The notes beneath the pieces are model-generated. The model was given only the letters and a program-made list of their open reading frames with translations, was not told where the DNA came from and made no database searches. The position numbers were made by a program, and so were the translations under genes. From contig CAZMKF010000011.1 of NCBI GenBank assembly GCA_964566935.1, positions 1 through 46,120 on the forward strand: a DNA stretch of 46,120 bases, written 5' to 3'. Shown here piece by piece: positions 27,044 to 42,907 of this stretch. Within the stretch, counting starts at the first letter, position 1, and each line of letters starts with the position of its first letter. This stretch comes from an uncultured Dehalococcoidales bacterium (GTDB taxonomy: Bacteria > Chloroflexota > UBA6077 > FW602-bin22 > JAMCYS01).

Positions 27044-27067
27044 CTGCGATACAACCTGATGAGGTAC

Positions 27068-27850
27068 TCAGCCATCATCCGATAGCGAGTATCGTTTGAG
27101 CCCGAGCAGCTGCAGGGCGGTCAAGCCGACAAAAACGGGGACGGTAATAATATACCGTCGCCACAATCGTCGTGGTTCCTGTGACAAACGAAAAACCCAC
27201 TCTAAGCCGCTCCACATCATCCATCGCGGCGCTTGCTTTTTACGACCAGAGTGAAAATCAAAGGCAGCGCCGACTCCGATCAGGACTGAGGCACTGAGGC
27301 GGTCCAAGTGCTCTGCCATCCAGAGATTCTGCTTAGCCCCGCCCAAACCAACCCAAACGATATCGGCGCCCGATCTGTTGATTGCGTTTACGACCTCGCT
27401 GTCTTCGTCAGCACTCAACTCCCGATACGGCGGAGCGAAAGCACCTGCAATGCGCAGTCGAGGATAGCGCAATCTCAACTTCTCAACCAGCGCATTAACA
27501 ACCTCTGAGCTGCCGCCATAGAAGTAATGGCTGTTGTCGCCAACGCCGGAGGTGCGCTCGCACAACGCCAATACCAGATCCGGGCCATATACTCGACTGA
27601 CTTGCCTCTCCCCATGCAACCGGGCCAACCACACCAACGGCATGCCATCTGGGGTGGCCATTCCACTACCGTTGATCGCTCTGCGTAGATTGAGATCACG
27701 CTGGCACTGGACTACCTCACTGGCAGCAACAACGGAAACGTAATGCTTCTCACCGCGCCGGAGCCAGCCCTCAATCACTTCCAATGCCATTGTCATGTTG
27801 ATGGCACTGATGCCGACTCCCAGGACGTTAACCCTCTTAAGGTCCGGCAT
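27068..27850 (-). CDS. WecB/TagA/CpsF family glycosyltransferase (GT26)
   Basis: VNVLGVGISAINMTMALEVIEGW, TPDGMPLVWLARL, YFYGG and SGADIVWVGLGGAKQNLWM. The start was set at the ATG that overlaps the fcl stop (TAATG). Confidence 0.85.
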   Translation of the reverse strand: MPDLKRVNVLGVGISAINMTMALEVIEGWLRRGEKHYVSVVAASEVVQCQRDLNLRRAINGSGMATPDGMPLVWLARLHGERQVSRVYGPDLVLALCERTSGVGDNSHYFYGGSSEVVNALVEKLRLRYPRLRIAGAFAPPYRELSADEDSEVVNAINRSGADIVWVGLGGAKQNLWMAEHLDRLSASVLIGVGAAFDFHSGRKKQAPRWMMWSGLEWVFRLSQEPRRLWRRYIITVPVFVGLTALQLLGLKRYSLSDDG

Positions 27851-28881
27851 TACGGTTCGGTAGGAGAACCCTGCGGTCGGTGCTGCAGATACCATTCAAC
27901 AGTGCGCACCATGCCTTCCCGGAGCGGCGTGGTAGCTCTAAAGCCGAACCCACGTTCCGCGCGACTGGTGTCAAGACATCGGCGCGGTTGACCATCGGGT
28001 TTGCTGGCATCCCACGCTATCTCTCCTGAGAAGCCAACAATACCAGCAATTAAACCGACCAGGCTCCTGATGCTAACCTCTTGACCGGAGCCGATGTTAA
28101 CCGGCTCCGGCTTATCATAGAGCTCAAGTGCGGAGACAATAGCGCACGCCGCATCCTCAACGTACAGAAACTCCCGCGAAGCCGTACCAGTGCCCCAAAC
28201 CGAGACGCTTGCAGCTCCCTGCTCTTTTGCCTCGACCATCTTCTTGATCAGAGCAGGAACCACGTGTGAACGACGAGGATCAAAACTGTCTCGCGGGCCA
28301 TAGAGGTTGGTTGGTAGCAGGAAGATCGAATTAAAGCCAAATTGCCGCCTGTAAGCGTCACCTTGCACCAGCAGCATCTTCTTGGCTAGCCCGTAGGGGG
28401 CGTTATTATCCTCAGGGTATCCGTTCCAAAGATCTTCCTCTCGAAACGGCACCGGCGTATGCTTCGGATAGGCGCAAACCGTACCTATCGATACGTACTT
28501 CTCGACTCCCCGCTGCCGGGCAACCTCCATGGTATGGACACCCATCAAGAGATTGTCGCGGAAAAACTCGCCCGGTTTCTCCTGGTTAATGCCGATGCCA
28601 CCCACTCGGGCCGCCAGGTGGATTACCGCCTCTGGTCGAGAATCGTCGAATGCTCGCAGGACATCAGGAAGTTTGGTGAGATCGTAATCACGACTGCGGG
28701 GTACAAAAACATCCTGATAGCCGCGCCTTGCCAGTTCATATACAACATGAGAACCCAAAAAACCTGCGCCCCCCGAAACTAACAGTCGACGCTTGGGCGC
28801 TTCACCAGCAATCGTCTTCATGGAACCATTTGTCATTGCCGTACGCTCCGCCATACAGATCCATCCAGGCTCAGCGCTCAT
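27850..28881 (-). CDS. fcl: GDP-L-fucose synthase (GDP-4-keto-6-deoxy-D-mannose 3,5-epimerase/4-reductase)
   Basis: LLVSGGAGFLGSHV, VIHLAARVGGIGIN, SIGTVCAYPKHTPVPFREEDLWNGYPEDNNAPYGLAKKM, LPTNLYGPRDSFD and VWGTGTASREFLYVEDAA. The start codon is uncertain because several in-frame Met codons are present. Confidence 0.85.
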   Translation of the reverse strand: MSAEPGWICMAERTAMTNGSMKTIAGEAPKRRLLVSGGAGFLGSHVVYELARRGYQDVFVPRSRDYDLTKLPDVLRAFDDSRPEAVIHLAARVGGIGINQEKPGEFFRDNLLMGVHTMEVARQRGVEKYVSIGTVCAYPKHTPVPFREEDLWNGYPEDNNAPYGLAKKMLLVQGDAYRRQFGFNSIFLLPTNLYGPRDSFDPRRSHVVPALIKKMVEAKEQGAASVSVWGTGTASREFLYVEDAACAIVSALELYDKPEPVNIGSGQEVSIRSLVGLIAGIVGFSGEIAWDASKPDGQPRRCLDTSRAERGFGFRATTPLREGMVRTVEWYLQHRPQGSPTEP

Positions 28882-28892
28882 GCGTATGGGCC

Positions 28893-30176
28893 CTAATCGG
28901 AGGCGGTTCCTTTCTCACGTGGAGCCATTTCTGCAACTGGCGCCCCGCGATTTAGCTTATACTCCACCCAGAATGAATACATGATGCCGAGCAGCATTCC
29001 GACTACGGTGCCAGCTGCGGCCAAGACTACTCGACCGCTCTGCATCGGTTCCTCAACCACCTGGGCCTCTATGGCACTCCTGATCACGTAGTTTCCACTC
29101 ACATCAGAGATCTGTGCCTTCTCAACCTCACGCTGCAACGTACGATATGTCTCAATCGCCAAGTCACGATCTGTCGTTAAGCTGAGTTCGGTCTCACTGC
29201 TTTGTTGAACCAGCCCTCTCAACTCCTGCGCCTGTGGGCTGAGTTCAGCGATGCGCCGTTTAGCCGTGTCCTCTTTTTGCTTCACGCTCGTCCTTAACCG
29301 ATGCGTGGCTTCGCGCAGTTCCTTGTATGTACGAGGCGGATTGTTGCTTCCACCGAGCTCCAGCCTAGTGGCTTCTCCCAAACCAGTCCGGTAAGCTTCC
29401 AACTCAAGCATCATGCTGGCGAGCTCGTCGCTCGGTATCACGTTTGCATTATCTGGGATACCGCCTATCTGCACGATAAAACGATCGACTTTCTCCAGGA
29501 GGCGTTGGGCGCCATCTCTCTCTGACATGTAGTACTCAAGGTTGGCTTGAACACTTGAAGACCGCAGCCTGAGCGAGGTCACGTCACCACGCCCAGCGAA
29601 TTCCGCTAGAGCGGCTGATGCCGTATCAACTCTCTCCCGAGCCTTGGCAAGTTCTGCCTCCAAATGACGTATCTCCGCCTCTCCGTAACCATAGATACTC
29701 CTGGCTTGATCTACGAGAACCTGCGCCCAACTATTAGCCATGTCAGCTACTGCCTTGGCATCAAACCCCTGCACTTGTAGCTTGACCAATGTTGCATCAG
29801 TCGATGGCTTGGCAATCACGTATTTACGCAATTCCTCAAGCGTCTGAAATCCCCATTCTCGTTCCCTCTGCTTATCCAATACCCGCATCAAAACCTGGTC
29901 GCTGTCGGCTAGAGCAATCAGAGACCGCGAGACTGCCCCCATATCGCCGAAGTCCTGCTCCTTTTCGATCTCACGGCGCAGGTCGAAGTTCAATTGGTAC
30001 GGTGAGCGCGATACGGAGACCATGGCCGATGCCTGGTAAGTACGCGGCAGAAGAAAAGTGACTAACAGGCTGACAATACCGGCTACAACGCCGAAAACGA
30101 CGATGAGCTTCCAATGCCGGATCAAAGCACGCAACTGGCGGAGAATGTCAATATCAGCGTCAGGATGCCTGGTCAT
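28893..30176 (-). CDS. wzz: Polysaccharide co-polymerase / chain-length determinant (Wzz/GumC-like), no kinase domain
   Basis: N-terminal Wzz motif and TM (WKLIVVFGVVAGIVSLLVTFLLPRTYQA), a long coiled-coil periplasmic region, and a C-terminal TM (VVLAAAGTVVGMLLGIMYSFW). Confidence 0.75.
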   Translation of the reverse strand: MTRHPDADIDILRQLRALIRHWKLIVVFGVVAGIVSLLVTFLLPRTYQASAMVSVSRSPYQLNFDLRREIEKEQDFGDMGAVSRSLIALADSDQVLMRVLDKQREREWGFQTLEELRKYVIAKPSTDATLVKLQVQGFDAKAVADMANSWAQVLVDQARSIYGYGEAEIRHLEAELAKARERVDTASAALAEFAGRGDVTSLRLRSSSVQANLEYYMSERDGAQRLLEKVDRFIVQIGGIPDNANVIPSDELASMMLELEAYRTGLGEATRLELGGSNNPPRTYKELREATHRLRTSVKQKEDTAKRRIAELSPQAQELRGLVQQSSETELSLTTDRDLAIETYRTLQREVEKAQISDVSGNYVIRSAIEAQVVEEPMQSGRVVLAAAGTVVGMLLGIMYSFWVEYKLNRGAPVAEMAPREKGTASD

Positions 30177-30608
30177 ACAGTTCTGTTATCCGCCTCCGAA
30201 ATAAGTAGAATAGCGGGCTGGATTTCGCACGGCACCCGGAACGACGACAACCCTGTTCGTACCGTAGAAGCTCTTGTCGGACCTCACCGGCGTATTCTAA
30301 CATAGGAATTCCCACGAGGACGGAGTACCACCAGTTTGACATTCCCCCGCCGGTACGAAGATATCTTTCAAGGTCGTTTGCGTTTGCTTTCGGCCTGCAT
30401 ACACCCCCTTTCGGCTTCGCAGCTGTGTATGTGCGTGGTGAACAACGGCGCCACAGACAGCATTCTGGCGAAATCAGATGCAACAATGGAGCAACCACGT
30501 CGCACCTCACTGTTGTTCACAACCTATGGTCAGGCAAAGCTGTAGACTGTCGATGCATTCGGCGCAGGGATCTAGCACTCCCAGTAACATATCCTACGAA
30601 AGGGAATC

Positions 30609-31472
30609 ATGATGAGAGTTGCCACGATAATGACTTGCCACAACCGCAGAGCAAAAACGATACAGTGCCTGGAGAGCCTAGAGAACCAGCTCTATCCCTC
30701 GCATACCGTCAATACCGTATATCTGACTGACGATGGCAGCAGTGATGGCACTGTTGAAGTGATATATGAGAGATTTCCCCAAACGCGATTAATGCACGGC
30801 AACGGCTCACTCTACTGGAATGGTGGCATGAGGGTGTCTTTCGCCGCAGCGATGGCTGATGACCATGACTACTATCTTTGGCTCAATGATGACGTCATCC
30901 TGAATGAGAACGCTGTCACGCACCTCTTGGCCACTCACCAAACACTGAGTTCTCGAGGCAAAGACCTGATCATCGTCATTGGATCCATGAAGGATCCAGT
31001 TTCTGGTAAGCTCACTTACGGGGGGGTCAACCGGTCTTGTCGCTGGCACCCACTCCGCTTCAGGCTGGTAAGCTCAAGCATCGATGCGCGGCAATGCGAC
31101 ACGATGAACGGCAACTGCGTACTTATTCCCCGATCAGTAGCGAACCTGACTGGTAATCTGGATGAGGGATTCATCCATCTGCATGGCGACTACGATTATG
31201 GGCTGCGCACAGTGCAACTCGGCGGTGAGGTCTGGATTGCACCAGGATTCGCGGGTACATGTGCGCGTAACACTGTCACGGGCACCTGGCGCGACGGTTC
31301 TCTCTCTCGGCGGGAACGGTGGAGACATATCTTGAGTCCAAAAGGCCTGCCTCCCACAGAGTGGCTGCGGTTCTTGCGCCGGCACGCGGGTCCAACTTGG
31401 CCGATCTTCTGGGTTCAACCTTACTTACGCTGCCTGTTTGGCGGTCCACTGCTGCGCATACACGAATCCTGA
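30609..31472 (+). CDS. Glycosyltransferase family 2
   Basis: VATIMTCHNRRAKTIQCLESL, the DxD-type TDDGSSDGT, and YYLWLNDDV. Confidence 0.8.
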   Translation: MMRVATIMTCHNRRAKTIQCLESLENQLYPSHTVNTVYLTDDGSSDGTVEVIYERFPQTRLMHGNGSLYWNGGMRVSFAAAMADDHDYYLWLNDDVILNENAVTHLLATHQTLSSRGKDLIIVIGSMKDPVSGKLTYGGVNRSCRWHPLRFRLVSSSIDARQCDTMNGNCVLIPRSVANLTGNLDEGFIHLHGDYDYGLRTVQLGGEVWIAPGFAGTCARNTVTGTWRDGSLSRRERWRHILSPKGLPPTEWLRFLRRHAGPTWPIFWVQPYLRCLFGGPLLRIHES

Positions 31473-31689
31473 GTTCTGGATGCGAGCTTCGCGGGCCTAA
31501 TAGGGAGCGCATTGGGACAGCAGAAGCATCCTACAACCTCACCACAAATGACAACAACGTACTGTAGGGGATTCATGGTAAACCGCTACGTATTGCTGCG
31601 GAGTCCATCACACGATGTCCATTCACTTGGTTAGCTACCGCAATAGCGCGTTGCCTACGGCTACTGCACACGCATATACTTAGCAGGCT

Positions 31690-33099
31690 ATGTACGAATT
31701 GCTCAAGCTTGTATGGACAAGGGGGAGGGACAGCGTCAAAGCACCGCTGACGGTGCTCTTGCTCGGCGCGCTCTTCTGGGCGATTATCGCACCAACCACC
31801 AGCGCGCAGGGAACCTTCCGCGCTTTCTTGCCGCTGATAATGCAGTCCCATGACGGTGTAGTCGTTCCATTTGGCATTGAAGCCACAGGTCTTACACCCG
31901 CCACCGCACCTACTATAGCGGCCCGGCTGAAGGATACCGGAACCACTTGGACACGCTTCAATGCGGTCAAATGGAGTGTAGTAGAACCAACACGCGGCGC
32001 GACGTATGATTGGCAGGATTACGATCAGACCCTGGCTGTGCTGGGAGATTCTGGCCTCCGTACAGTGCTGGTGATTTCCACCAGCCCGGATTGGGCCTCG
32101 GTTGATCATGTGAATCTGCCCTCAGGCCCCATCAAGGCCGACTGCTTGCCTGATTTCGCGCGTTTTGTTCAGGCTGCCGTCAGTCGCTACTCGGCTGCAC
32201 CTTACAACATCACCCATTTTGAGTTCTTCAATGAGCCCGACGGCACGAGTGCCGCCTCCATATATAGCGGCATCATCGGCACCTGGGGCGATTACGGCGC
32301 CGAGTACGCGAACATGCTGGAGACCGTTTATCCCGCTGTAAAGGCCGCCAACCCCTCAGCGAGCGTGGTTTTTGGGGGACTGGCGTACAGCGGCTTCGTC
32401 CCCGACGGCCCGTTCAACCGTTCGTTTTTGGATGATGTGCTAAACGCGGGCGGCGGTCAGTACTTCGACGTCTTCAACTTCCATTACTATGCCATCCAGA
32501 CAACTCAGTGGGATGCCGACGGCATCGACATCATCGGCAAGACCAGATACCTGCGAGAGAAACTAAGGAACTACGGTCTCAGCGACAAACCGATGATCTG
32601 CACCGAACTCGGCACTTTCGGTACGCCCGGCGACGCTGCACAACTGGAAACCCAGGCTCAGTACGTGGCGAAGGTCCATGCGCGCGGCATGGCAGCGGAC
32701 CTGAAGATAATGCATTGGTACTCACTGTACAGGGGTACCGATCATACTGGCCTGATCGAGAACGACGTCGCCAAACCAGCGTACCAGGCGTATCAAGTGA
32801 TGACATCGCAGCTGGCAAATGCCAGATTCGTTCGCAAACTGCCTGCCGAGGAAATGAGTCTTACGGGGCCCGGGGCAACGGTATTTGAGGGCTACGCATT
32901 CCGCAACGTGGACGGTCGTAGTGAAACCTGGCTGGCGTGGCTGAATGGGAACCTTACAGCAACTCTCTCGCTAACTTCTCCACGGGGTGTGACTGTGATG
33001 GACAAGATGGGCGCCACACAGACTATCTCTGCTGATAGTACGGGTACGGTTACCATCAGTGTTGGCGAATCGCCGATATTCATCGTTGTCCCTCACTGA
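31690..33099 (+). CDS. Secreted glycoside hydrolase, clan GH-A (TIM barrel; GH5/GH39-like)
   Basis: Signal peptide ending AQG. Has the acid/base motif FEFFNEPD and a candidate nucleophile motif ICTELG. Sits within a polysaccharide locus. Confidence 0.6.
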   Translation: MYELLKLVWTRGRDSVKAPLTVLLLGALFWAIIAPTTSAQGTFRAFLPLIMQSHDGVVVPFGIEATGLTPATAPTIAARLKDTGTTWTRFNAVKWSVVEPTRGATYDWQDYDQTLAVLGDSGLRTVLVISTSPDWASVDHVNLPSGPIKADCLPDFARFVQAAVSRYSAAPYNITHFEFFNEPDGTSAASIYSGIIGTWGDYGAEYANMLETVYPAVKAANPSASVVFGGLAYSGFVPDGPFNRSFLDDVLNAGGGQYFDVFNFHYYAIQTTQWDADGIDIIGKTRYLREKLRNYGLSDKPMICTELGTFGTPGDAAQLETQAQYVAKVHARGMAADLKIMHWYSLYRGTDHTGLIENDVAKPAYQAYQVMTSQLANARFVRKLPAEEMSLTGPGATVFEGYAFRNVDGRSETWLAWLNGNLTATLSLTSPRGVTVMDKMGATQTISADSTGTVTISVGESPIFIVVPH

Positions 33100-33437
33100 C
33101 TAAGCGGCGCGAGAAGCTAGCGCGTCCGCTGTGGAGATGACATGTCACGCACCCTGACCGAAGGCGCAGAATCACTGAGGCCCACTGATCAGATCAATCG
33201 GGAACCGGCACCACTACCGGCACCACTACCACGGTCCGTAAGCGGTGCCACCTTCGTCATCCTGGTTCTCCTGTCGTGCGTGGCCTCAGTGATCTTCTGT
33301 ATAGGCCGTTCGACCGGACCAAGCGTACGTGTCTACGAGTTGAGCGGTTCCTAATTGCGTCGCGATACTGAACGCGACCCGCGACGGTTTACTGCTCTGT
33401 GTAACAGAGGCAAAGCCTAGATTATGCGTATAAGGGA

Positions 33438-34703
33438 ATGATTGTGCGTCAATCGCGTTTGCTTGTTGGCGTGATTCTCATCTTGTTCGTATACAGCCTG
33501 CTGGTTGTGGTCAGAAACTTCGCCTATGCCACGAGCCCGGGACAAGGCATAGACTTCTACTCCTATTGGATGCCCCTGCAGGCGGTAAGAGAAGGTGTCA
33601 ATCCGTACATTCCGAACTTGTCAGACATTATCTATCCTAGCTTCTACCTGGACGGAGAGATGGACCATCTAGGTCTTCGCGCGCAGTTCGACAAACCTGT
33701 GCCAGCCAACTCACCGCTTATGTTATGCCTGCTGTACCCACTCGGGTTTTTCACATTTGAGGTTGCCAGGTTTCTCTGGATGGTGGTGAACTACCTACTC
33801 ACAGTGGGCTCAGTATTCGTGCTGCTCAGGCTGTTTGAGCATATGGCATGTGAAGTGGGGCGGCGAAACGGCCTCATCCTGCTGCTCGTCGCTCTAAGCA
33901 TGCTGGCCGTTCGAACCGCAAACGGCAATGGTCAGACCACACTCCTGATCGTATTCGCCCTTTTCTCAAGTTGCTTTCTGCACCGGCATCAGAAGGATTT
34001 GTCGGCGGGATTGTTACTTGGAATTGCGCTCTCTAAATACACGTTAGCGATAGGACCGGTTGCCTACTTTCTGTATAAGAAGAAGTGGTCAACTCTGATG
34101 GTGGCGATCGCTACTCAGGTTTTCGGCGTTGTTGCGGTCGCGTTGCTTTCTCAGACGAATCCCGTCGGGCTGGCAATCGATTACGTTCGCCTGGTTTCCA
34201 TCTCAGGCTTCACCTCAATGCCGGGTATCCACCTCGCCCACTACTTACCCTTCAGCCAGGCTGTAGTGGCGGCCGGGGTCACCATACTGTTTGCCGTGGC
34301 GCTCTTCTTAATCCACCGAAGACACGGTGCATCTGACAGCGCCTCTGTAGATACGTTAGTGTTTGCGCTGTCGATCAACTGGTCTATTCTGGCCGTATAC
34401 CATCGCTATTACGACGCCACGATTCTCCTCTTCGGTGTGGCACTTATGATGGCGATGGTCGCCAATCCGCAGTGCTGGAACCTCACACCCAAACAGCGCA
34501 ATACGATACTTGGCCTTCTGGTTGTCAGTACGACACTATTGATGCTACCAGGCGAGACAATCCAGCGACTTCTTCCGGGCGGATTGTACGCGATGATCAA
34601 GTCGCTGCCTGACGTTGCCGCCACAACCATTGTCATCGTCTGGTCCGTGGCGTTTTGGCTAGTGAGCGAACAGCTTGCCGCTCCGTCAAAACGCAGCCTC
34701 TGA
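33438..34703 (+). CDS. Polytopic membrane protein, GT-C-fold glycosyltransferase-like (GT87/DUF2029-like)
   Basis: 421 aa with ~10 TM segments and no soluble domain. The central GIALSKYTLAIGPVAYFLYKKKW pattern resembles DUF2029 proteins. Family assignment is from memory only. Confidence 0.45.
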   Translation: MIVRQSRLLVGVILILFVYSLLVVVRNFAYATSPGQGIDFYSYWMPLQAVREGVNPYIPNLSDIIYPSFYLDGEMDHLGLRAQFDKPVPANSPLMLCLLYPLGFFTFEVARFLWMVVNYLLTVGSVFVLLRLFEHMACEVGRRNGLILLLVALSMLAVRTANGNGQTTLLIVFALFSSCFLHRHQKDLSAGLLLGIALSKYTLAIGPVAYFLYKKKWSTLMVAIATQVFGVVAVALLSQTNPVGLAIDYVRLVSISGFTSMPGIHLAHYLPFSQAVVAAGVTILFAVALFLIHRRHGASDSASVDTLVFALSINWSILAVYHRYYDATILLFGVALMMAMVANPQCWNLTPKQRNTILGLLVVSTTLLMLPGETIQRLLPGGLYAMIKSLPDVAATTIVIVWSVAFWLVSEQLAAPSKRSL

Positions 34704-35021: not shown

Positions 35022-35570
35022 TCACCGTTTCTCGGCCAGGTAGGCGAAGAAGCCGGCCCGCTTCAGCGCCACCAGGGTGAGACCGCCCAGCAGGCCGCCG
35101 GCAGCGCCGAAGATCACATAGCCCACTAGCGAACGCGCCAGGCCCAACACCACGAAGCCCGCCGGCGCGCCCATCGCCGAGGCCATGGCCCACTTGACGA
35201 GAAACTTGCCCAGGTGGCCCAGTGTAGCCGCCAGCACGGCCACCGGCAGCCGGAAGGGGTTGCCCAGCATCAGCAATAGCGCCAGGTCCGTGCCCACGCC
35301 CACCGCCAGATACGACAGCAGCGTGTTCAGCATGCCGAAATCCCCCAGGCCGAGGAAAGCCGCCAGGATGCCCGAACTCAACCCCACCAGGCTCGCCGCA
35401 CCCGGTTTGGGCACCACGCCCGCCGCCACGATGATGATTGCCATCCAGAAGATACCCGAGTGGCCGGGCAACTGCAGCGGCAAGCGCAGCGCCACCTTGG
35501 CCACCACGATCAGCACCGCGAACATGGCCAGCAGAATCAGTTGGAAGGTACTGAAGTAGTGTTGTTTCAA
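35022..35570 (-). CDS. Six-TM membrane protein, ECF transporter S-component-like
   Basis: About 183 aa with six hydrophobic segments and no soluble domain. It is the last gene of an operon containing EcfA-A'-T. A TTG start overlaps the upstream TGA (TTGA at 35567-35570); the track starts at 35609. Confidence 0.5.
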   Translation of the reverse strand: MKQHYFSTFQLILLAMFAVLIVVAKVALRLPLQLPGHSGIFWMAIIIVAAGVVPKPGAASLVGLSSGILAAFLGLGDFGMLNTLLSYLAVGVGTDLALLLMLGNPFRLPVAVLAATLGHLGKFLVKWAMASAMGAPAGFVVLGLARSLVGYVIFGAAGGLLGGLTLVALKRAGFFAYLAEKR

Positions 35571-36052
35571 CGGGTCAACACCTCTATTCTGTCCACATCC
35601 CGCACCCATTCGTCGCGCGTATCCAGCTCTGGCAAAGGAGAGGCCAGGCGCAGCGTGCCGCGATTAGTCGTCGTGAGCAACACCAGGTTGGCCGGTTCGC
35701 GCACCCTCGCCCATAACAGGCGCGCCTCTTCCCCTCGCGCGGCGCTGCTAACCACTATCGTTGCATCGGCCGGTACCTCGTCCATCGGCAGGCTGAGCTG
35801 GATCACCTCGGCCAACAGCCAACCCACTTGCGCCTTGCCTTGCTCCTGATCCACGAACTCATGTTTGTCAAGGGCTGTAAGCTTCGCAGGCGACAAACAG
35901 GTGCGTTGCTCACCGTCCAACACGATCGGAATGGAGCCCTCTTCTGAATGAGCGGGGGAGGACCGGCCGAACTCGACAAACGCTACCGCAAAACCGATGA
36001 TGACGATGATGAGGACGGCAAGCCACATTCTAATCTGCTCATTTGATCTCAT
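35567..36052 (-). CDS. Membrane-anchored extracytoplasmic beta-domain protein (truncated molybdopterin-oxidoreductase-fold-like)
   Basis: The ATG at 36052 overlaps the upstream TGA (ATGA). It has one N-terminal TM (WLAVLIIVIIGFAVAFV). The domain pattern IVLDGEQRTCLSPAKLTAL...VGWLLAEVI...IVVSSAARGE...LRLASP...WVRDVDRIEV parallels that of 39069-39656. Confidence 0.45.
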   Translation of the reverse strand: MRSNEQIRMWLAVLIIVIIGFAVAFVEFGRSSPAHSEEGSIPIVLDGEQRTCLSPAKLTALDKHEFVDQEQGKAQVGWLLAEVIQLSLPMDEVPADATIVVSSAARGEEARLLWARVREPANLVLLTTTNRGTLRLASPLPELDTRDEWVRDVDRIEVLTR

Positions 36053-38364
36053 CTCACTACCCCAAACCGCCAGGTTAGTACAAGCGCCAGTACCAGGCCT
36101 GCCGACAATAACAGTAGCCAATCCAGCCTGCCCAGGCGCAGCTGGAGACGCGGGCGGCGCTGCGGAGAGTCGAAGCCACGAGCGTAGGCTGCCTCAGTGC
36201 TGGCCCAGGCGAACCTGGCCACCATCACCACCGCCGGCACCGCCAGCGATACCATATCACGAACTCTGGCGCCAAGTTGCCGCCACTCCCATGAGGCCTT
36301 CGGCCAGGCGCCGCGCGAGCGCTGTGCCTCAAAGACGTTACGCCATTGCTCCTCGATCATACCGATGCTCTCGAAGGCCAAGCTGAGGCTGAAGGCGTAG
36401 CGATGAGGCAGACGGAGCCACTCGAGAGCCTGGCGCAATTCCACCGGCGCCGTAGTGTAGAAAAGCAGGGCGAAGACGCTGGCCAGCAATACCACCCGCA
36501 AGGTAACGAGCCAGGCGTGCTCAGGCGAGATAATAAACCAGTCGACAACAAAGAGAAAGCAGAGTACCCACTTCAGCCGCCAGAGCTGAGCCAGCACCTG
36601 CGGAAGTAGTCGCGCCCAGGCAAGCAGGCCGGTGTACATGGCGCCAAACACCAGCAGCGGGTACAGATCCAGCATTACCGCCAGCGAGGAGAAGAGCACA
36701 AGCAGCATCTTGACACGCGGGTCCACCTGCCGGAAAGGCGACTCTTCTACCAGCTGCACCTGCAAAGAACGCCGCCCGCCACCGCGCTGCCTCCTCCTGC
36801 CCGCCTCAGGCGCGCCGGGCTGTTGACCCGCCTGCTCGGCTCCAGCATGTGGCAGCTCGCGCTGCCGCTGCGGCAGTTCCATGGGCTCTGCTTGAAGCGG
36901 CTCGGGCGGCAGTTCCGCCACCACCCAGTCCGGTACCTGCAAACCAATCTTCCGCCAAGGTTGGGGATCGCGCAGCAGCCTGCGTGGGGGACCATCGGCC
37001 ACGATGCCGTCACGGCCCAGCACCAGCAGGCGGTCGGCCGCTGCTGCCAGCGGCAGATCGTGCGTGGTCAGCAACACAATCCGGCCGCTGGCAGCCAGCG
37101 AGCGGCAGATCCGCAGCAACATCTCCTTGTGGGCACCATCCTGCCCCTGCGAGGGCTCGTCCAACAGCAGACCGTGCCTGGGCTGGCGCATCAGCACCGT
37201 TGCCAGGGCAACCCGCTTCTTCTCGCCTTCACTCAAGAGCAGCGGCGGCGTGTCCTCGTAGCTGCTCAGGCCCAGCGCCGCCAGCAGGTTGCGATAGAGC
37301 GCCTCGTCGTGCCCTGGCAGGCGATGCAAGATCTCCTCACGCACGCTGCCGTTGAACAGCTGCAAATCCGCATTCTGGAACACCAGGCCGAAATCGGGCC
37401 GCTCTCCCGCCAGGCTGACGGCGCCATCGTGTCGCTGCAGGCCCGCCAGCGCGCGCAACAGCGTCGTCTTGCCCACCCCGTTGCGCCCCACCACGGCCAC
37501 GAACTGGCCACCGCGCAGGTCAAAGCTGAGATCCTCCAGAATCCGGCGGCCGCCCAGGGCCACGCTCAGCCGCTCAACCTCCAACCGCAGCGGCGCATCG
37601 GCCGGCTTTCGCCATTCGAGCGGCGCTGCGCCGGCGCCACCACCGCTGCGCGAGCCCAGCCGCAACACGCGCAGCGCATCGAACTGGCCAAAGTACTGGT
37701 CGCGATGCTCACAAACGGCCACCACCGTACCGCTGGCAACCAACTGGCGCAGCTGAGTGACCAGATCCATCGCCGCCGTGCTATCCAGCATGGAGAGCGG
37801 TTCGTCCAGGATTAGCACGGGTGGCTGGCGTGCCATCATCGCCGCCAGGGCCAGCTTCTGCTGCTCACCACCGGAGAGGGTGCGCGGCGCCCTGTGGCGC
37901 AGCCGCTCCAAACCAAAATCCGCCAGGTATTGCTGAACCCGCCGTTCTGTCTCGTCCGCTGTCAGGCCCAGATTCTCCAGGCCGATTGCCAGCTCATCAT
38001 CGACGCTGTGCGCCAACATCTGCGAGGCGGGGTTCTGGAAGACGAAACCCGCCTCGCGCGAGAGCCGCCAAAGCGGGTGGTCACTGGTACGCAGTCCGTT
38101 CAGCCAGACCGCGCCCTCCAATTGACCGTGATAGAGATGGGGTATGAGCCCTCCCAGGCAGCGGGCGATGGTGCTCTTGCCGGAGCCCGAGGGGCCCGTC
38201 AGCAGCACCGCCTCGCCACTAGCCAGTTGCAGGTTTAAGCCGCCCGGCAGGCGGCCACCCTGGGGGTAGGTGAAGCCCAGCTCGCGGGCCTCGATCAACC
38301 GCGCAGCGGCCTGCGCGCCAACATCTGACGTATAGCCGGCTAGTCCAGTTTCAGCGGCAGCCAA
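36049..38364 (-). CDS. Fused ECF-type ABC protein: two ATPase domains (EcfA-EcfA') plus a C-terminal CbiQ/EcfT transmembrane domain
   Basis: Domain 1 has GPSGSGKST, LSGGEQQKLALA and ILILDEP. Domain 2 has GRNGVGKTT, LSEGEKKRVALA and LLLDEP. An Arg/Gln/Gly-rich linker follows. The C-terminal ~230 aa are CbiQ-like, with both Ala-Arg-Gly coupling motifs (EAQRSRGA, AAYARGFD). The start may instead be the TTG at 38298. Confidence 0.85.
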   Translation of the reverse strand: MAAAETGLAGYTSDVGAQAAARLIEARELGFTYPQGGRLPGGLNLQLASGEAVLLTGPSGSGKSTIARCLGGLIPHLYHGQLEGAVWLNGLRTSDHPLWRLSREAGFVFQNPASQMLAHSVDDELAIGLENLGLTADETERRVQQYLADFGLERLRHRAPRTLSGGEQQKLALAAMMARQPPVLILDEPLSMLDSTAAMDLVTQLRQLVASGTVVAVCEHRDQYFGQFDALRVLRLGSRSGGGAGAAPLEWRKPADAPLRLEVERLSVALGGRRILEDLSFDLRGGQFVAVVGRNGVGKTTLLRALAGLQRHDGAVSLAGERPDFGLVFQNADLQLFNGSVREEILHRLPGHDEALYRNLLAALGLSSYEDTPPLLLSEGEKKRVALATVLMRQPRHGLLLDEPSQGQDGAHKEMLLRICRSLAASGRIVLLTTHDLPLAAAADRLLVLGRDGIVADGPPRRLLRDPQPWRKIGLQVPDWVVAELPPEPLQAEPMELPQRQRELPHAGAEQAGQQPGAPEAGRRRQRGGGRRSLQVQLVEESPFRQVDPRVKMLLVLFSSLAVMLDLYPLLVFGAMYTGLLAWARLLPQVLAQLWRLKWVLCFLFVVDWFIISPEHAWLVTLRVVLLASVFALLFYTTAPVELRQALEWLRLPHRYAFSLSLAFESIGMIEEQWRNVFEAQRSRGAWPKASWEWRQLGARVRDMVSLAVPAVVMVARFAWASTEAAYARGFDSPQRRPRLQLRLGRLDWLLLLSAGLVLALVLTWRFGVVR

Positions 38365-39026
38365 CAGGCCTCGCCTCGTTCCACAAACAACACGGGGCGG
38401 CCGCCGCGCCGCGCCGGGCGCACCTTCTCCGCCAGCAGCTCGCCCTCGGCCACCTCCGCACCGTCCAGAGTGCGTATCGCGCTTACGCCAGCCCGCCGCA
38501 CCTCCGCCAGCGGCTGCAGGCCGGATAGCTCCCTCAGGTGGCCCAGCAGCACATAGCGGCCATCCTCACCCTCGGCCGCCAGCCCAACCGCCGCCAGCGC
38601 GCCGATCACGCCGCCGTTGGTACCGCCCAGGCCCTGCAGGCTCAGCTGCTCGCGCTTCGCCAGCTCCCAGGCGGCCTGCTGCCCCAGCAGTACGGTCTTG
38701 GCCAGGTGACCAAACTCGGTGACCGCGGCGGGGAAGGTGGCGGCCACACAGAGGCCGGGATCGCTGCCCTCGATGTAGTTGGCCTCCATCTCGGCCCTGG
38801 CCACAGCCGCCACGGCGGCCACCTGCCCAGCGCACGCGTCGGGCAGCAGGATGGAAGCGCTGCTGTTGTGGCTGGTGCAGGGCACCCGCTCGTCCCACAG
38901 CAGCTGGTGACGCACCACTCCCGCTACTTCGTACTCGTTGGCGAGCCGCCCGGCGATCAGTCGCGCCAAGTACCCGGTGCCACGCGTACCCAGCATATCG
39001 GTATCATCGAGACCGACGATGATCAT
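38340..39026 (-). CDS. Stand-alone protein resembling the N-terminal kinase (TCKD / DUF1743-type) domain of archaeal tRNA-agmatidine synthetase TiaS
   Basis: MIIVGLDDTDMLGTRGTGYLA versus the TiaS VGIDDTDS..GMCTTYLA. SDPGLCVA versus TiaS TNPGAVF. GGVIGALAAVGLAAEGED versus TiaS GLIGALAAVGAELED. The comparison is from memory of the A. fulgidus TiaS sequence. The protein is 228 aa with no OB fold or Zn ribbon. Confidence 0.5.
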   Translation of the reverse strand: MIIVGLDDTDMLGTRGTGYLARLIAGRLANEYEVAGVVRHQLLWDERVPCTSHNSSASILLPDACAGQVAAVAAVARAEMEANYIEGSDPGLCVAATFPAAVTEFGHLAKTVLLGQQAAWELAKREQLSLQGLGGTNGGVIGALAAVGLAAEGEDGRYVLLGHLRELSGLQPLAEVRRAGVSAIRTLDGAEVAEGELLAEKVRPARRGGRPVLFVERGEACWLPLKLD

Positions 39027-39068
39027 ACTTCGCCTCCACCATGGCCAGGCACGGTCTGCCTGCCAGGA

Positions 39069-39656
39069 TTACTTCACCTGCAGCTCCACAACCCCCTTGA
39101 CCTGCAGGTTACTGGCGGCATCCGGCAGCACGGTGCTGAAGCCGCCCTTGTTGCGGAACTGCACAATGCAGTTGCTGCAATTCATCACGTCGCTTAACGA
39201 GGTCTCGGCAGTAAAGCCGTCGTCGGCAACAAAGACGATTTTGCTGGCATCGGCAGCCGGCTTGGCGAGGGTCAGCAGGTCTTTGATCAACACGCCCTCG
39301 TAATCGACGGTCTCACCCTGCTTGTTCTTGGACTGCACCTTGATGACGGTCATCTTCTTCACCGCCTCCTCGCTCCAGCCGATGGGCGAACCTACCTTAC
39401 CCGTCACCTTGAGGGCGGAGTCGGCGGGCACGCCGGCGGCTGGGGACGCCGCTGTCTTGCTGGCGGCCGCAGGAGAGGCGGCAGCCTTGGTGGCTGCGGC
39501 GGTAGTTGCGGCAGGAGCCGCGGTTGCAGCTTTGGTGGCGGCAGCGGCAGTAGCCTTGGGCGCCGTGGTCGCGGGCGCAGCCGGAGAGGAGCAGGCCGCA
39601 GTGAGCGCCAGCGCGACGCCCAGGCAACAGGTGGTAAGCACTAACTTAAGAGACAC
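39069..39656 (-). CDS. Lipoprotein with a long Ala/Thr/Pro/Lys linker and a C-terminal beta-domain (truncated molybdopterin-oxidoreductase-fold-like)
   Basis: GTG start with GGAGGA 7 nt upstream and lipobox LTAAC. A linker of about 55 aa of low complexity is followed by LKVTGKVGSPIGWSEEAVKKM...VDYEGVLIKDLL...IVFVADDGFTAE...VLPDAASNLQVKGVVELQV. Confidence 0.65.
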   Translation of the reverse strand: MSLKLVLTTCCLGVALALTAACSSPAAPATTAPKATAAAATKAATAAPAATTAAATKAAASPAAASKTAASPAAGVPADSALKVTGKVGSPIGWSEEAVKKMTVIKVQSKNKQGETVDYEGVLIKDLLTLAKPAADASKIVFVADDGFTAETSLSDVMNCSNCIVQFRNKGGFSTVLPDAASNLQVKGVVELQVK

Positions 39657-39861
39657 AGAAACATCCTCCGTTCAGAACTTCCAGGGAGGCAGCCGCAATC
39701 GGCCGCCACGGGCATGTTAACATAGCGCTCACCATACGGGTAACAACGTCCACGGTTGCCCAGGCGAGGCGTGCCGTGCGTTTGTTCCCGTGCGGTCTTC
39801 ACCTCCCCGTAGGGCGTCTAACCCGCCGGCGCGTGCGGTGCACTGAGGCAGTCACGGCAGC

Positions 39862-40716
39862 CTAGTAGGGTGGGCCGATCGTCTCCATTAGAGCCGCCAG
39901 CTCGCGCTTGTCATGCTCGTCCAGCTCCATGCCCGCCGGCTCGCGCAGGTAGGCATGTTTGAAGATGCCCTGGCGGCGCAGCACCTCTTTGGCCAAGAGG
40001 AACCTGTGCTGCTGGCGGGCGTGGAGCAGCGGCAGAATGTGCAGGTTGGCCCGCCGCGCGCCCTCCAGGTCACCTGCCTGATAACGCTCGAAACAAGTCA
40101 CCATATCGGCGGCGCCCATGCAGGCGGGGATGGCGCCCACCACCCCGCGCGCCAGCTCGTCAAGCAGGAACACACCCGAGCTGAAGATCCGCGCCTTGCC
40201 ATCGCTCAACCACATCAGCTCGCTGATCATGTGGCTCGAGTTCTCCGGCGCCTCCTCCTTGATGTACCTGATATTGTCGAACTCCTGGGTCAGTGCCACC
40301 ATCAGGGCGGCGGGGATGGGCAGAGTGTAGTGCTGCAACATAATCGGAATCCTTATCGCCGCGGCCACCCTGCCGTAATGGTAGCGGATAGCACGGGGCG
40401 TCAGCGGCCCCCAGCTGGGCGGGGAGAGGAAGACGGCGGTGGCGCCCGCCTCCTCGGCCGCCCGGCTCAGTTCCACCGCTGTGCTGGTGTTCTCCGCCGA
40501 GGCACCCACGATCACCGGCACCCGCCCCGCCACCTGTTCGATCACCACCCGCGCCATCCAACAGCGCTCGGCGTTGGTCAGCTTCTGGCTCTCGCTCGCC
40601 GTACCCACCGCCGAGACGCCGTGCACGCCGGCGGCGATCAGATGCTCCACCAGCTTGCGCAGGTCCTCCTCATCGATCCTGCCCTCGGCGTCAAAGGGCG
40701 AATAAACGATCGGCAT
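39862..40716 (-). CDS. Dihydrodipicolinate synthase / N-acetylneuraminate lyase family (class I aldolase) protein
   Basis: PFDAEGRIDEEDLRKLVEHLIAAGVHGVSAVGTASESQKLTNAER, VIVGASAENT, and the Schiff-base lysine context IRYIKEE. The start was moved to the ATG at 40716 (MPIVYSPF). Confidence 0.8.
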   Translation of the reverse strand: MPIVYSPFDAEGRIDEEDLRKLVEHLIAAGVHGVSAVGTASESQKLTNAERCWMARVVIEQVAGRVPVIVGASAENTSTAVELSRAAEEAGATAVFLSPPSWGPLTPRAIRYHYGRVAAAIRIPIMLQHYTLPIPAALMVALTQEFDNIRYIKEEAPENSSHMISELMWLSDGKARIFSSGVFLLDELARGVVGAIPACMGAADMVTCFERYQAGDLEGARRANLHILPLLHARQQHRFLLAKEVLRRQGIFKHAYLREPAGMELDEHDKRELAALMETIGPPY

Positions 40717-40954
40717 TACACCGCGCAGTTCATCTGCCAACACCCACCTCCGCGCCCATCTTTCAGACGATTCTGTTCGTCGGTACCATAGCAGAGATGT
40801 CGACCGCCTGGCGTTGTGTGATGAGTTCTGCAAGCGAAACTTGGTAACGCAGGTGGGCAAGACCGAGTCGAGCGCGCCTTAGTGCCTTTCAGGGGACGGA
40901 GCAGGTGGCGGTAACGAACTGCCAATGGCAGCAGGCCCGTCCGCATCCCAAATA

Positions 40955-40985: not shown

Positions 40986-41061
40986 TGGTACCCCTGGGCC
41001 GACTCGAACGGCCGACACACGGTTTAGGAAACCGTTGCTCTATCCACTGAGCTACAGGGGC
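40986..41061 (-). tRNA. tRNA-Arg (anticodon CCU), 76 nt, CCA encoded
   Basis: Folded by hand. Acceptor stem GCCCCTG/CAGGGGT, including G1-U72. D arm GCTC-AGTGGATA-GAGC. Anticodon arm ACGGT-TTCCTAA-ACCGT. Variable loop GTGTC. T arm GGCCG-TTCGAGT-CGGCC. Discriminator A, then CCA. Confidence 0.9.
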
Positions 41062-41443: not shown

Positions 41444-42907
41444 ATGAAGCCAGTAAAACTGACCATTCTTCACTCCAACGACATGCACGGCGACTTCCTC
41501 GCCGAGATGCGCGCGGGTGACACCAAGATGATCGGGGGGCTCTCTCTGCTCTCCGGCTACATCAAACAGGTGCGGCATACCGAAGAGAATGTACTCTACG
41601 CGGTCGCCGGGGACATGGTGCAGGGCTCAATGATCGATACAGAATACCGCGGGGTTTCCACGATCGAACTGATGAACTACCTGGCGCCCGACGTAGCCAC
41701 GCTCGGCAACCACGAGTTCGATTACGGCCTGCCCCACCTGCTCTTCCTGGAGAAGCTGGCAAACTTCCCCATCGTCAATGCCAACCTCTATATCAAGAAA
41801 CACTTCAAACGGTTGATGCAGCCGTACACCATCATCAACAAGTCGGGCCTGGACGTGATGTTCATCGGCGCCATCACGGAGAATGTGATTCACGCCCTCA
41901 GCTCGGACGAACAGATCGGCAGCTTCATCACGATGAGGGAGATACGCGACGAGGTAGGCCGCATCACCAACGCTTACCGCAACGACGATATTGATCTCAC
42001 CGTGATCCTCTCGCACATCGGCTACGAGTCTGACCTCGAGTTGGCGGAGATGCTGGACCCGGAGTGGGGGGTAGACATGATCATCGGCGGTCACAGCCAC
42101 ACCGTGCTCGACAAACCCACTCGGGTCAACAACATTCTGATCGCCCAGGCGGGCGTGGGTACCGACCAGATAGGCCGCTTCGATCTGGTGGTCGACGATG
42201 ACACGAACAGCATCGTCGATTACACCTGGCGTCTGATCCCGATCGACAACACCATTGCCGAACCCGATCACGAGCTGGAGAAGTTCATCCAGTCGTTCCA
42301 GGAGGTGGTCGATCGCAAATACGCCACTATCATCACCATGCTGGGCGACGAGCTGGGACATCCGAGCCGTATAGTGGAGACGCCGCTGGGTAACCTGGTG
42401 GCGGACGCACTGGCGGATACCACCGGCGTGGACGTGGTCCTGATCGGTAGTGGTTCCATCCGCGTCAAAGCACTGGGCCCGCTGGTTACCCTGGGCAGCT
42501 TCGTCACCGCCTTCCCCTACAATGACTCGCTGCACCGTTTCACCATTTTGGGCAGCCAGCTGAAACATCTCTTCAACAGCTGGATGCGCAAGGAGAACCG
42601 CAACGGCGAGGGTGAATGCTATCAGGTGAACAGCCGCGTGCGTGCTGTCTTCGACGAGGCGGCCAACAAGCTGCGCTCACTTACCATCAACGGCCGCGAC
42701 GTCATGGACGAGGCTAGCTACACCATCTGCCTGCCAAGCTATCACGTCAATCTGGTGGAGAAGATATTCGACCTGACGCTCGACGAAATGACCCGCGAGG
42801 CGCCCTCAAAGGTGCTGTCCACCCGTTTCCAGGACCCGCTGGAAGAGTATCTGCGCGCTCACCAGAACAGCACTCGGAAAGTTGAGGGAAGGTTGGTATA
42901 CGTGTAG
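41444..42907 (+). CDS. Bifunctional metallophosphatase / 5'-nucleotidase family protein (UshA-like), no signal peptide
   Basis: Calcineurin-like motifs LTILHSNDMHGDF, AGDMVQGS, LGNHEFDYG and SHIGYESD..GGHSH, plus a C-terminal 5'-nucleotidase substrate-binding domain. Confidence 0.85.
   Translation: MKPVKLTILHSNDMHGDFLAEMRAGDTKMIGGLSLLSGYIKQVRHTEENVLYAVAGDMVQGSMIDTEYRGVSTIELMNYLAPDVATLGNHEFDYGLPHLLFLEKLANFPIVNANLYIKKHFKRLMQPYTIINKSGLDVMFIGAITENVIHALSSDEQIGSFITMREIRDEVGRITNAYRNDDIDLTVILSHIGYESDLELAEMLDPEWGVDMIIGGHSHTVLDKPTRVNNILIAQAGVGTDQIGRFDLVVDDDTNSIVDYTWRLIPIDNTIAEPDHELEKFIQSFQEVVDRKYATIITMLGDELGHPSRIVETPLGNLVADALADTTGVDVVLIGSGSIRVKALGPLVTLGSFVTAFPYNDSLHRFTILGSQLKHLFNSWMRKENRNGEGECYQVNSRVRAVFDEAANKLRSLTINGRDVMDEASYTICLPSYHVNLVEKIFDLTLDEMTREAPSKVLSTRFQDPLEEYLRAHQNSTRKVEGRLVYV

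Follow-up and report, generated by a model that had tools for sequence, protein, structure and literature searches.

An ECF transporter operon with SUOX-fold and TiaS-kinase-like accessory proteins in an uncultured Dehalococcoidales bacterium, and the molybdenum/tungsten context of its relatives

Organization of the operon and its transporter core

We analyzed a five-gene operon for a transporter of the energy-coupling factor (ECF) type that lies within a 46,120-nt stretch of DNA (hereafter the window; contig CAZMKF010000011.1, positions 1 to 46,120, assembly GCA_964566935.1) from an uncultured Dehalococcoidales bacterium of the Chloroflexota. An earlier note, based on the sequence alone, had described five consecutive minus-strand genes running from 39656 to 35022. 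These genes are present, with small corrections to the coordinates, and their products are a lipoprotein, a cytoplasmic protein resembling the TCKD kinase domain of TiaS, a fused ATPase/T component, a membrane-anchored protein, and an S component (Table 1). Taken with its relatives in three phyla, the operon points to an ECF transporter with a new regulon, substrate class and accessory parts, and to a means of taking up tungsten, molybdenum or their pterin cofactor that has so far not been described.

Table 1. Window coordinates of the operon genes and leader.
Feature	Position	Strand	Remarks
Lipoprotein	39069..39656	-	195 aa; signal peptide, Ala/Pro/Thr-rich linker, C-terminal SUOX-like domain
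TCKD-like cytoplasmic protein	38340..39026	-	228 aa; TiaS TCKD fold plus C-terminal beta domain
Fused EcfA-EcfA'-EcfT	36049..38364	-	771 aa; two nucleotide-binding domains, CbiQ-type T domain
Membrane-anchored SUOX/PruR-fold protein	35567..36052	-	161 aa; single N-terminal transmembrane helix
S component, PF09819 (YkoE-type family)	35022..35570	-	approximately 182 aa from TTG 35570; longest open reading frame from ATG 35609
Leader 5' of lipoprotein gene	39657..39861	-	205 nt; riboswitch not recognized

Two of the overlaps described previously, ATGA at 36049-36052 and TTGA at 35567-35570, are seen in the sequence, whereas the third (38340-38364) requires the 771-aa gene to begin at TTG 38364; the sole alternative in-frame start within the first 50 codons, TTG 38298, would open a 41-nt gap to the 228-aa gene. 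The S protein is probably 182 aa long rather than the 195 aa of the longest open reading frame (ORF), because initiation at TTG 35570 yields the N-terminus MKQHYFSTF..., which agrees with the MKxRYFSTF of its homologues. Upstream of the starts at 39656, 39026, 36052 and 35570 lie Shine-Dalgarno-like sequences. No riboswitch was recognized in the leader, either with Rfam at the gathering threshold or at E<=10 over 7 kb and over 281 nt alone. A leader hairpin, GGCGGCCG-AUUG-CGGCUGCC, followed by UCCCUGGAAG...GGAGGA, recalls by eye the 3' part of the motif that senses the molybdenum cofactor (Moco), but this resemblance is not claimed as a riboswitch because the covariance models gave it no support.

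The core of the operon conforms to the ECF architecture. Fusion of EcfA, EcfA' and a CbiQ/EcfT domain in the single 771-aa polypeptide, as proposed earlier, is backed by profile matches and motifs: Pfam found two ATP-binding cassette (ABC) domains (ABC_tran, 1.3e-49) and a CbiQ domain (PF02361, residues 541-735; 1.4e-9, 38.3 bits against a cut-off of 25), and the top NCBIfam models were ECF ATPases, with TIGR04520 (ECF_ATPase_1) at 9e-79 and TIGR01166 (cbiO) at 231.6 bits against a cut-off of 211.8. The Walker A, signature and Walker B motifs are complete in both halves of the protein (residues 57, 163 and 183, and residues 293, 377 and 399, respectively). The T domain had been credited with two Ala-Arg-Gly coupling motifs; this is correct for the second (AYARGF, residue 728), but the first is Ser-Arg-Gly (QRSRGA, residue 683). 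The other half of the proposed core, a small S component, was likewise borne out, the S protein scoring above the Pfam cut-off for PF09819 (ABC_cobalt; 32.7 bits against 25.2). It is hydrophobic along its full length. In an alignment from three phyla (Chloroflexota, Hydrogenedentota and Planctomycetota) the Gly-His of its LPGHS motif is invariant and Lys135 and Lys139 are near-invariant, His50, Lys/Arg68, Lys135 and Lys139 being the basic positions kept across the phyla. Neither the S protein nor its family profile matched a PDB chain at E<=10, and PDB sequence searches with the lipoprotein and with the family profile of the anchored protein were equally uninformative. The operon thus combines two ABC ATPase domains, a T component with two X-Arg-Gly motifs and a small membrane S component, the parts by which an ECF importer is recognized from sequence.

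Accessory proteins

The three remaining proteins had been described as foreign to any characterized ECF system, and our profile and fold searches likewise placed none of them in one. The 228-aa cytoplasmic protein had been likened to the kinase domain of TiaS. Its AlphaFold2 model, built on 48 homologues, has a predicted local distance difference test (pLDDT) score of 86.9, and the first nine matches in a Foldseek search of the PDB were all TiaS (best E 2.5e-8, approximately 160 aligned columns), in agreement with that description. The TCKD fold takes up the N-terminal 160 residues or so; the remaining 68 or so form a small beta domain, for which Pfam returned no match at E<=10 when the domain was searched in isolation. 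The GxDDTD motif (the DDTD cluster), Thr17 (the equivalent of Thr18 in TiaS) and the GxIGALAAVG motif are intact in the window protein and invariant in the TCKD-like family, as is a basic loop, RPARR, in the C-terminal beta domain. The fold and the first three of these motifs are shared with TiaS, the archaeal tRNA-Ile2 agmatidine synthetase. In contrast to TiaS, the protein is bacterial, is linked to a membrane transporter and to molybdenum/tungsten (Mo/W) genes, and at 228 aa, compared to 417-420 aa, is missing the tRNA-binding FLD, OB and zinc-ribbon domains. Its sequence weakly matched TiaS over the TCKD domain and "methanogenesis marker protein 11" over that protein's C-terminal half, and the NCBIfam equivalog model for TiaS (NF040849) gave 15.4 bits against a cut-off of 600. 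It is a protein with the TCKD fold, and its ATP chemistry is probably that of TCKD as well, but it is not a TiaS. Weak Foldseek matches of the same model to HPPK pterin kinases (E approximately 0.2-0.5, probability <=0.23) were put down to generic ferredoxin-like similarity and given no weight.

TCKD-like proteins form a large family, with at least 3921 matches in a 90%-clustered collection and, in an exhaustive search, 1160 clusters at 50% identity (297 at E<=1e-30). No informative domain fusion was found among the representatives searched exhaustively; the longer matches look like frameshifts or mis-joined ORFs. Public labels of the protein disagree, NCBI records of metagenome-assembled genomes (MAGs) giving "ABC transporter substrate-binding protein" and JGI "tRNA(Ile2) C34 agmatinyltransferase TiaS"; neither label is backed by the domain analysis.

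The two extracytoplasmic proteins carry domains related to sulfite oxidase (SUOX). An AlphaFold2 model of the anchored protein (pLDDT 87.4) was matched by Foldseek to chicken sulfite oxidase, in its Moco-binding domain (E 3.5e-5, probability 1.00), and to PruR (7kom, 7kos, 7kp2 and 7rkb; E 3e-4 to 8e-4, TMt 0.55-0.66), one of these structures being a neopterin complex. PruR is a periplasmic pterin binder with a degenerate SUOX fold that does not have the Mo-ligating Cys (PMC11194511). No Pfam or NCBIfam family covers the anchored protein, and its ectodomain gave no Pfam match at E<=10. A single-sequence homologue search recovered just the window copy, so that a profile search was needed; this found at least 1588 homologues, every one unnamed or labeled "hypothetical protein". 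The gene for the anchored protein always lies between the T and S genes in the related loci described below.

In the lipoprotein, a signal peptide ending in LTAAC (Cys22) and the linker precede a SUOX-like domain at approximately residues 79-195. The Pfam match of this domain to Oxidored_molyb is weak and below threshold (1.4e-4 with the full sequence and 5.7e-5 with the domain alone), but by phmmer and jackhmmer it is homologous to domains in related loci that do reach the Pfam threshold, and to domains fused to the tungstate-binding protein TupA. The two extracytoplasmic proteins had been said to share a small beta domain. BLASTP detected no similarity between them, but hhalign aligned their families at 59% probability (E 9e-5, 101 columns); because this profile-profile comparison and the independent SUOX-fold assignments agree, a shared domain is supported, with the revision that it is specifically of a degenerate SUOX/PruR type. 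The window proteins span just positions 56-118 of the 169 in the Oxidored_molyb profile, with sub-threshold scores, and the dimerization and haem domains are absent. As judged by eye from the sequence, the Mo-ligating Cys hairpin region is replaced in both proteins, and the pterin-stacking aromatic positions survive in part, the lipoprotein having DGF and the anchored protein DEW. The DGY/DGF aromatic position is kept throughout the lipoprotein domain family and, again by eye, may correspond to the pterin-stacking Tyr of SUOX and PruR. A CxxC motif (C165 and C168; window 39141-39152) is kept in the lipoprotein-type subtype of these domains (window, L006, L008, L009, L012, L014, L016, L019 and L020) and is missing from the other SUOX-like subtypes.

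The window proteins resemble PruR in being small secreted or anchored proteins that are nearly all degenerate SUOX fold, apparently without the Mo-ligating Cys hairpin. They differ in having ABC/ECF importer partners in place of DcpA-type signaling, in the fusion of relatives with TupA or an S component, and in the CxxC motif of the lipoprotein subtype. No DcpA-like partner gene was found near the operon among the ORFs and Pfam matches.

Gene order and molybdenum/tungsten context of related loci

We used phmmer and hmmsearch to map 32 related loci from genomes and metagenomes (cited as L001 and so on). Nineteen distinct Chloroflexota loci, the window included, have 3.5 kb or more of sequence 3' of the TCKD-like gene, and in 16 of these the order is TCKD-like gene, A-A', anchored-protein gene and S gene, with T either fused to A-A' or encoded separately. 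One locus, L008, repeats the entire five-gene order of the window, lipoprotein included. In Hydrogenedentota and Planctomycetota a gene for an S-like membrane protein, with the invariant Gly-His motif and the near-invariant Lys135 and Lys139, abuts the TCKD-like gene in all nine loci (9/9), in either gene order and with no ECF module adjacent. The pair of S-like and TCKD-like genes is therefore the conserved core, and the dedicated ECF module and SUOX-fold proteins are Chloroflexota additions. The expected conservation across phyla, including the co-occurrence of the TCKD-like gene with ECF genes, was thus observed; since the accessory proteins map to no characterized ECF system and the neighborhood is conserved, the earlier description of an unusual ECF operon holds. 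Two related loci show disruptions: a Y1 transposase gene separates the TCKD-like gene from the ECF genes in L001 (L001:8915-9475), and the ATPase/T gene of L013 (10955-12869) appears to be broken into several ORFs by frameshifts or assembly errors.

The related loci are rich in genes of Mo/W metabolism. Flanking the cluster are moaA, moaC, moaD, moaE, moeA and mog, and an "AA_kinase" neighbor proved to be a homologue of molybdenum storage protein (MoSto; 1.7e-73 to MosB). Other neighbors are WtpA (297 bits against an NCBIfam cut-off of 242.75), TupB, TupC, and a GntR regulator with a PBP_like (PF12727) domain. The arrangement is most compact in L011, where a riboswitch, the TCKD-like gene, A-A'-T, the anchored-protein gene, the S gene, moaA, moaC, moaD, moaE and moeA follow one another on the same strand; successive ORFs overlap or nearly abut, and no other transporter was detected in this array. 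The TCKD-like gene also occurs directly after TupB-TupC-TupA with neither ECF nor S gene (L032), after TupBCA-MoSto with no S gene (L020), and beside MoSto and a DUF134 regulator gene with no adjacent transporter (L004 and L005).

Rfam RF01055 riboswitches, which sense Moco or the tungsten cofactor (Tuco), were found in related loci at 44-78 bits against a gathering score of 36. They lie directly 5' of the TCKD-like gene in L011 and L015 (Chloroflexota) and in L021 and L022 (Hydrogenedentota), 5' of moaA in L002, L003 and L017, and 5' of a paralogous ECF cluster in L016 and probably also in L012; in L001 and L019 the riboswitch is followed by a lipoprotein homologue and then by the MoSto gene. 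The P3 stem is missing in every complete aptamer with a displayed alignment (L001, L002, L011, L012, L016, L017 and L021). Moco RNAs that do not have P3 segregate with tungsten-cofactor metabolism (Regulski et al. 2008, PMC2408646).

Several further observations concern these neighbors. The MoSto homologue (L002:6324-7160) is a single gene in Chloroflexota, closest to Azotobacter MosB, with homologues in 19 of the 32 related loci, and it usually adjoins a divergent pair consisting of the DUF134 regulator gene and a gene for a conserved 83-aa protein with no family match. In a Planctomicrobium MAG, the first gene after the S-like/TCKD-like pair is for a 151-aa protein with a ModE N-terminal domain (L023:7737-8192; TIGR00637, 4e-17); DUF1559 pseudopilin-like genes come next in L022, L023 and L024.

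The domain type of the window lipoprotein recurs in TupA-like lipoproteins that bear one or two C-terminal SUOX-like domains (L016:8096-9808, L020:7266-9011, L009:6915-8258, L006:11659-13014, L031:645-2333 and L032:8611-9915). All four such sequences that were read (L016, L020, L009 and L006) have a TTTS motif, a tungstate-binding signature, and we know of no description of this TupA-SUOX architecture. A second, paralogous ECF cluster is also found in the Mo/W islands (L016:1621-7585, L014:131-5509 and L031:2440-8997, as well as L012 and L020). In it, a PF09819 S component is fused to two SUOX-like domains (7.8e-17) and accompanied by A-A' and T, by a membrane-anchored protein that combines a SUOX-like domain with two CxxCH haem motifs, by a lipoprotein of the nucleotide pyrophosphatase/phosphodiesterase family, and by additional SUOX-domain lipoproteins. 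The cluster of L016 starts directly 3' of a P3-less Moco riboswitch, and in L012 such a riboswitch (1182-1306) has a partial S-SUOX ORF downstream. On a single strand, L031 carries TupC, TupA-SUOX, the second ECF cluster, MoSto and the TCKD-linked ECF cluster.

Candidate substrates and surroundings of the operon

From the context of its homologues, the operon is likely to encode a dedicated ECF importer that belongs to the Mo/W-cofactor regulon. For the window copy this assignment depends on homology (the TCKD-like proteins being 57-62% identical and the S components, among Chloroflexota, 67-76%), because the window has neither an RF01055 riboswitch nor MoSto, DUF134, moa or tup neighbors, an absence that speaks against the assignment. 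The earlier note had left the substrate fully open; it can now be narrowed, inasmuch as the homologous clusters belong to the Mo/W-cofactor regulon, although any exact substrate can be proposed only by inference.

Our preferred proposal, held tentatively, is a dedicated (group-I style) ECF importer for tungstate/molybdate or closely related oxo/thio-metalate species. The scheme suggested previously, of capture outside, ECF import and ATP-dependent chemistry inside, is a reasonable hypothesis. At the cell surface, the lipoprotein and the anchored protein would display SUOX-fold domains that apparently lack the Mo-ligating Cys and could capture the substrate and pass it to the S component. By homology to ECF transporters, the S component, with its conserved His, Lys and Arg in the membrane domain, would move the substrate inward, driven with ATP by EcfA-EcfA'-EcfT. 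In the cytoplasm the TCKD-fold protein may then, at the expense of ATP, process the imported species or pass it on, possibly to MoSto or for insertion of the metal into molybdopterin (MPT).

Several features of the related loci favor an oxyanion and at the same time argue against import of an organic precursor. The fusion of a SUOX-like domain to TupA, and the position of the gene for a lipoprotein homologue between a riboswitch and the MoSto gene, would fit proteins that handle the metal. In L011, the ECF genes supply the one transporter detected in a co-directional array whose remaining genes serve de novo synthesis of molybdopterin and insertion of the metal. Since the TCKD-like gene can follow TupBCA or TupBCA-MoSto with no S gene, its product would act downstream of whichever importer is present, and a metal oxyanion would be what the ECF and Tup importers beside this gene have in common. 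The conserved basic residues of the S component and the RPARR loop of the TCKD-like protein may also fit an anionic ligand.

Metal-type ECF systems offer a precedent by analogy: Rodionov and co-workers are said to have found in 2006 that Cbi and Nik transporters need additional small extracytoplasmic components. Like CbiMNQO and NikMNQO (NikKMLQO), the window operon brings together A, T and S with small extracytoplasmic or membrane-anchored loading components, and both kinds of system are under cofactor-sensing control, by a B12 riboswitch for Cbi and by the Moco/Tuco riboswitch for the homologues of the window operon. They differ in the S component (PF09819 as opposed to CbiM/NikM), in the accessory proteins (SUOX fold as opposed to CbiN or NikK/L), in the presumed substrate (an oxyanion or pterin as opposed to a cation), and in the TCKD-fold enzyme and single-chain A-A'-T that the window operon adds. 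No Pfam or NCBIfam match to a CbiM/NikM-type S component, CbiN/NikN or NikK/L was found in any of the five window proteins. The TupABC, WtpABC and ModABC systems share with the operon's relatives a regulon, a neighborhood and a presumed role in supplying W or Mo for cofactor synthesis, but they are type I importers, whereas the window operon is of type III (ECF) and encodes no receptor with a periplasmic-binding-protein fold.

Several considerations weigh against an oxyanion importer. We know of no oxyanion ECF transporter, S components usually binding organic micronutrients. A pterin cofactor is the native ligand of the SUOX fold, and PruR, the nearest stand-alone structural relative here, binds pterins. 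In several genomes Tup and/or Wtp adjoin the ECF genes, so that an additional tungstate importer would look redundant. Finally, the TCKD chemistry known to us, phosphorylation of a cytidine carbonyl, explains no role with an inorganic oxyanion.

Salvage of a cofactor precursor is the main alternative, which we regard as possible though on balance unlikely. Here the transporter would import a pyranopterin, such as molybdopterin, cyclic pyranopterin monophosphate (cPMP), or Moco/Tuco from dead cells, which the TCKD-like enzyme would re-phosphorylate or adenylylate inside. ECF S components are typically vitamin binders, and YkoE, the characterized member of PF09819, binds thiamine. Vitamin salvage commonly pairs an S component with a kinase, as in ThiW-ThiM, HmpT-ThiD and PdxU-PdxK, and the pairing of S-like and kinase-fold genes in three phyla resembles these. 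Control by the Moco/Tuco riboswitch would be as natural for salvage as for metal uptake. The anchored fold matches both the Moco domain of sulfite oxidase and the periplasmic pterin binder PruR, including its neopterin complex (PMC11194511), and the retained DGY/DGF aromatic of the lipoprotein family could be a pterin-stacking position. Extracellular capture might in some genomes follow processing of dinucleotide cofactors by the pyrophosphatase/phosphodiesterase lipoprotein and the dihaem cytochrome c-SUOX protein of the second ECF cluster, ECF import and ATP-dependent re-activation then taking place as above. Were this so, the S-like protein, the TCKD-fold kinase and the SUOX/PruR capture proteins would form the first bacterial salvage pathway for the Mo/W cofactor or a pyranopterin precursor, a conclusion that we think doubtful. 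In addition to the TupA fusions, the MoSto linkage, the TupBCA-linked TCKD-like gene and the L011 array, the conserved basic residues of the S component speak against a neutral dephospho-pterin, the Moco-ligating Cys hairpin region appears to be missing, and Moco and MPT are very labile.

A different assignment of the TCKD-like protein within a Mo/W transporter seems quite improbable, namely that it is a regulatory or gating subunit, a MoSto/MoeA chaperone, or merely a co-regulated enzyme that modifies RNA or nucleotides. The only characterized TCKD acts on tRNA, the invariant basic loop at the C-terminus could bind nucleic acid, and the gene stands apart from any transporter in L004 and L005. 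However, the catalytic Asp cluster, Thr17 and GxIGALAAVG are invariant, the protein has none of the tRNA-binding domains of TiaS, and the tight linkage to an S-like membrane protein, in three phyla and in both gene orders, argues for a functional partnership.

The Pfam names would suggest a conventional cobalt/nickel (Cbi/Nik) or thiamine/hydroxymethylpyrimidine (YkoEDC) transporter. The operon resembles YkoEDC(F) of Bacillus subtilis in its dedicated organization, in a fused double ATPase (as in YkoD), in an extra soluble cytoplasmic protein (YkoF) and in the Pfam family of S; it differs in having SUOX-fold proteins and a kinase-fold protein in place of a YkoF-type binder. In spite of the CbiQ, ABC_cobalt and TIGR01166 matches, this reading is scarcely credible, given that CbiM/NikM, CbiN and NikK/L are absent, that scans of the window and of 28 related loci (L001-L029 except L005) turned up no cobalamin or thiamine pyrophosphate (TPP) riboswitch, that the S protein finds no PDB match even though a crystal structure of YkoE with its cognate substrate is published (PMC5037267), and that the conserved context is exclusively Mo/W.

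Full-text literature searches found no ECF transporter for Mo or W and no transporter for Moco in bacteria; nor did they yield any functional account of the TCKD-like or anchored proteins. To our knowledge, established molybdate and tungstate uptake in prokaryotes is confined to Mod, Wtp and Tup, all of them type I ABC importers with a periplasmic binding protein, and we know of no bacterial transporter for Moco or its precursors. If the Mo/W reading is correct, the operon represents a new ECF-type uptake route that is widespread in Chloroflexota, a phylum that is abundant in the subsurface, in sediments and in anaerobic digesters. The orphan family with the TiaS kinase fold, now mis-annotated, would gain its first physiological context, and SUOX-fold domains that apparently lack the Mo-ligating Cys would be identified as extracytoplasmic capture modules, fused in relatives to TupA, an S component or a dihaem cytochrome. 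The operon would also provide a handle on how W and Mo are acquired and discriminated in sulfidic habitats, and on the fate of the oxyanion between import and insertion into molybdopterin.

As regards the surroundings of the operon, a DapA-family gene had been noted directly upstream on the same strand. The ORF is real (39862-40860, minus strand, 205 nt upstream; DHDPS match 3.6e-36), but the adjacency is not conserved; a functional link to the operon is rejected because none of the 32 related loci has a homologue, and the proximity is probably incidental. The ORF probably starts at an ATG near 40715 (MPIVYSPF...) rather than at TTG 40860, the Pfam match beginning at residue 45 of the long ORF; its top NCBIfam matches, to HpaI-type aldolase and DapA, are each below cut-off. 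The G+C content is 63-70% across 35-41 kb of the window, compared to approximately 54% over the preceding 10 kb. At the upper edge of this G+C-rich block, which holds the operon and the DapA-like gene, lies a tRNA-Arg(CCT) gene (40986-41061, minus strand), with a sigma-70-like promoter at 41120-41091 and a GC-rich hairpin plus T-run directly 3'; a block bordered in this way may hint at an island. Beyond the tRNA gene, a 5'-nucleotidase/UshA-like protein (Metallophos and 5_nucleotid_C domains) with no obvious signal peptide is encoded at 41444-42907 on the plus strand. On the other side of the operon, a cluster for cell-envelope polysaccharide (24333-34703) encodes Wzz-like, NAD-dependent epimerase, WecG/TagA transferase, flippase, GT2, GH5-like and GT87 proteins.

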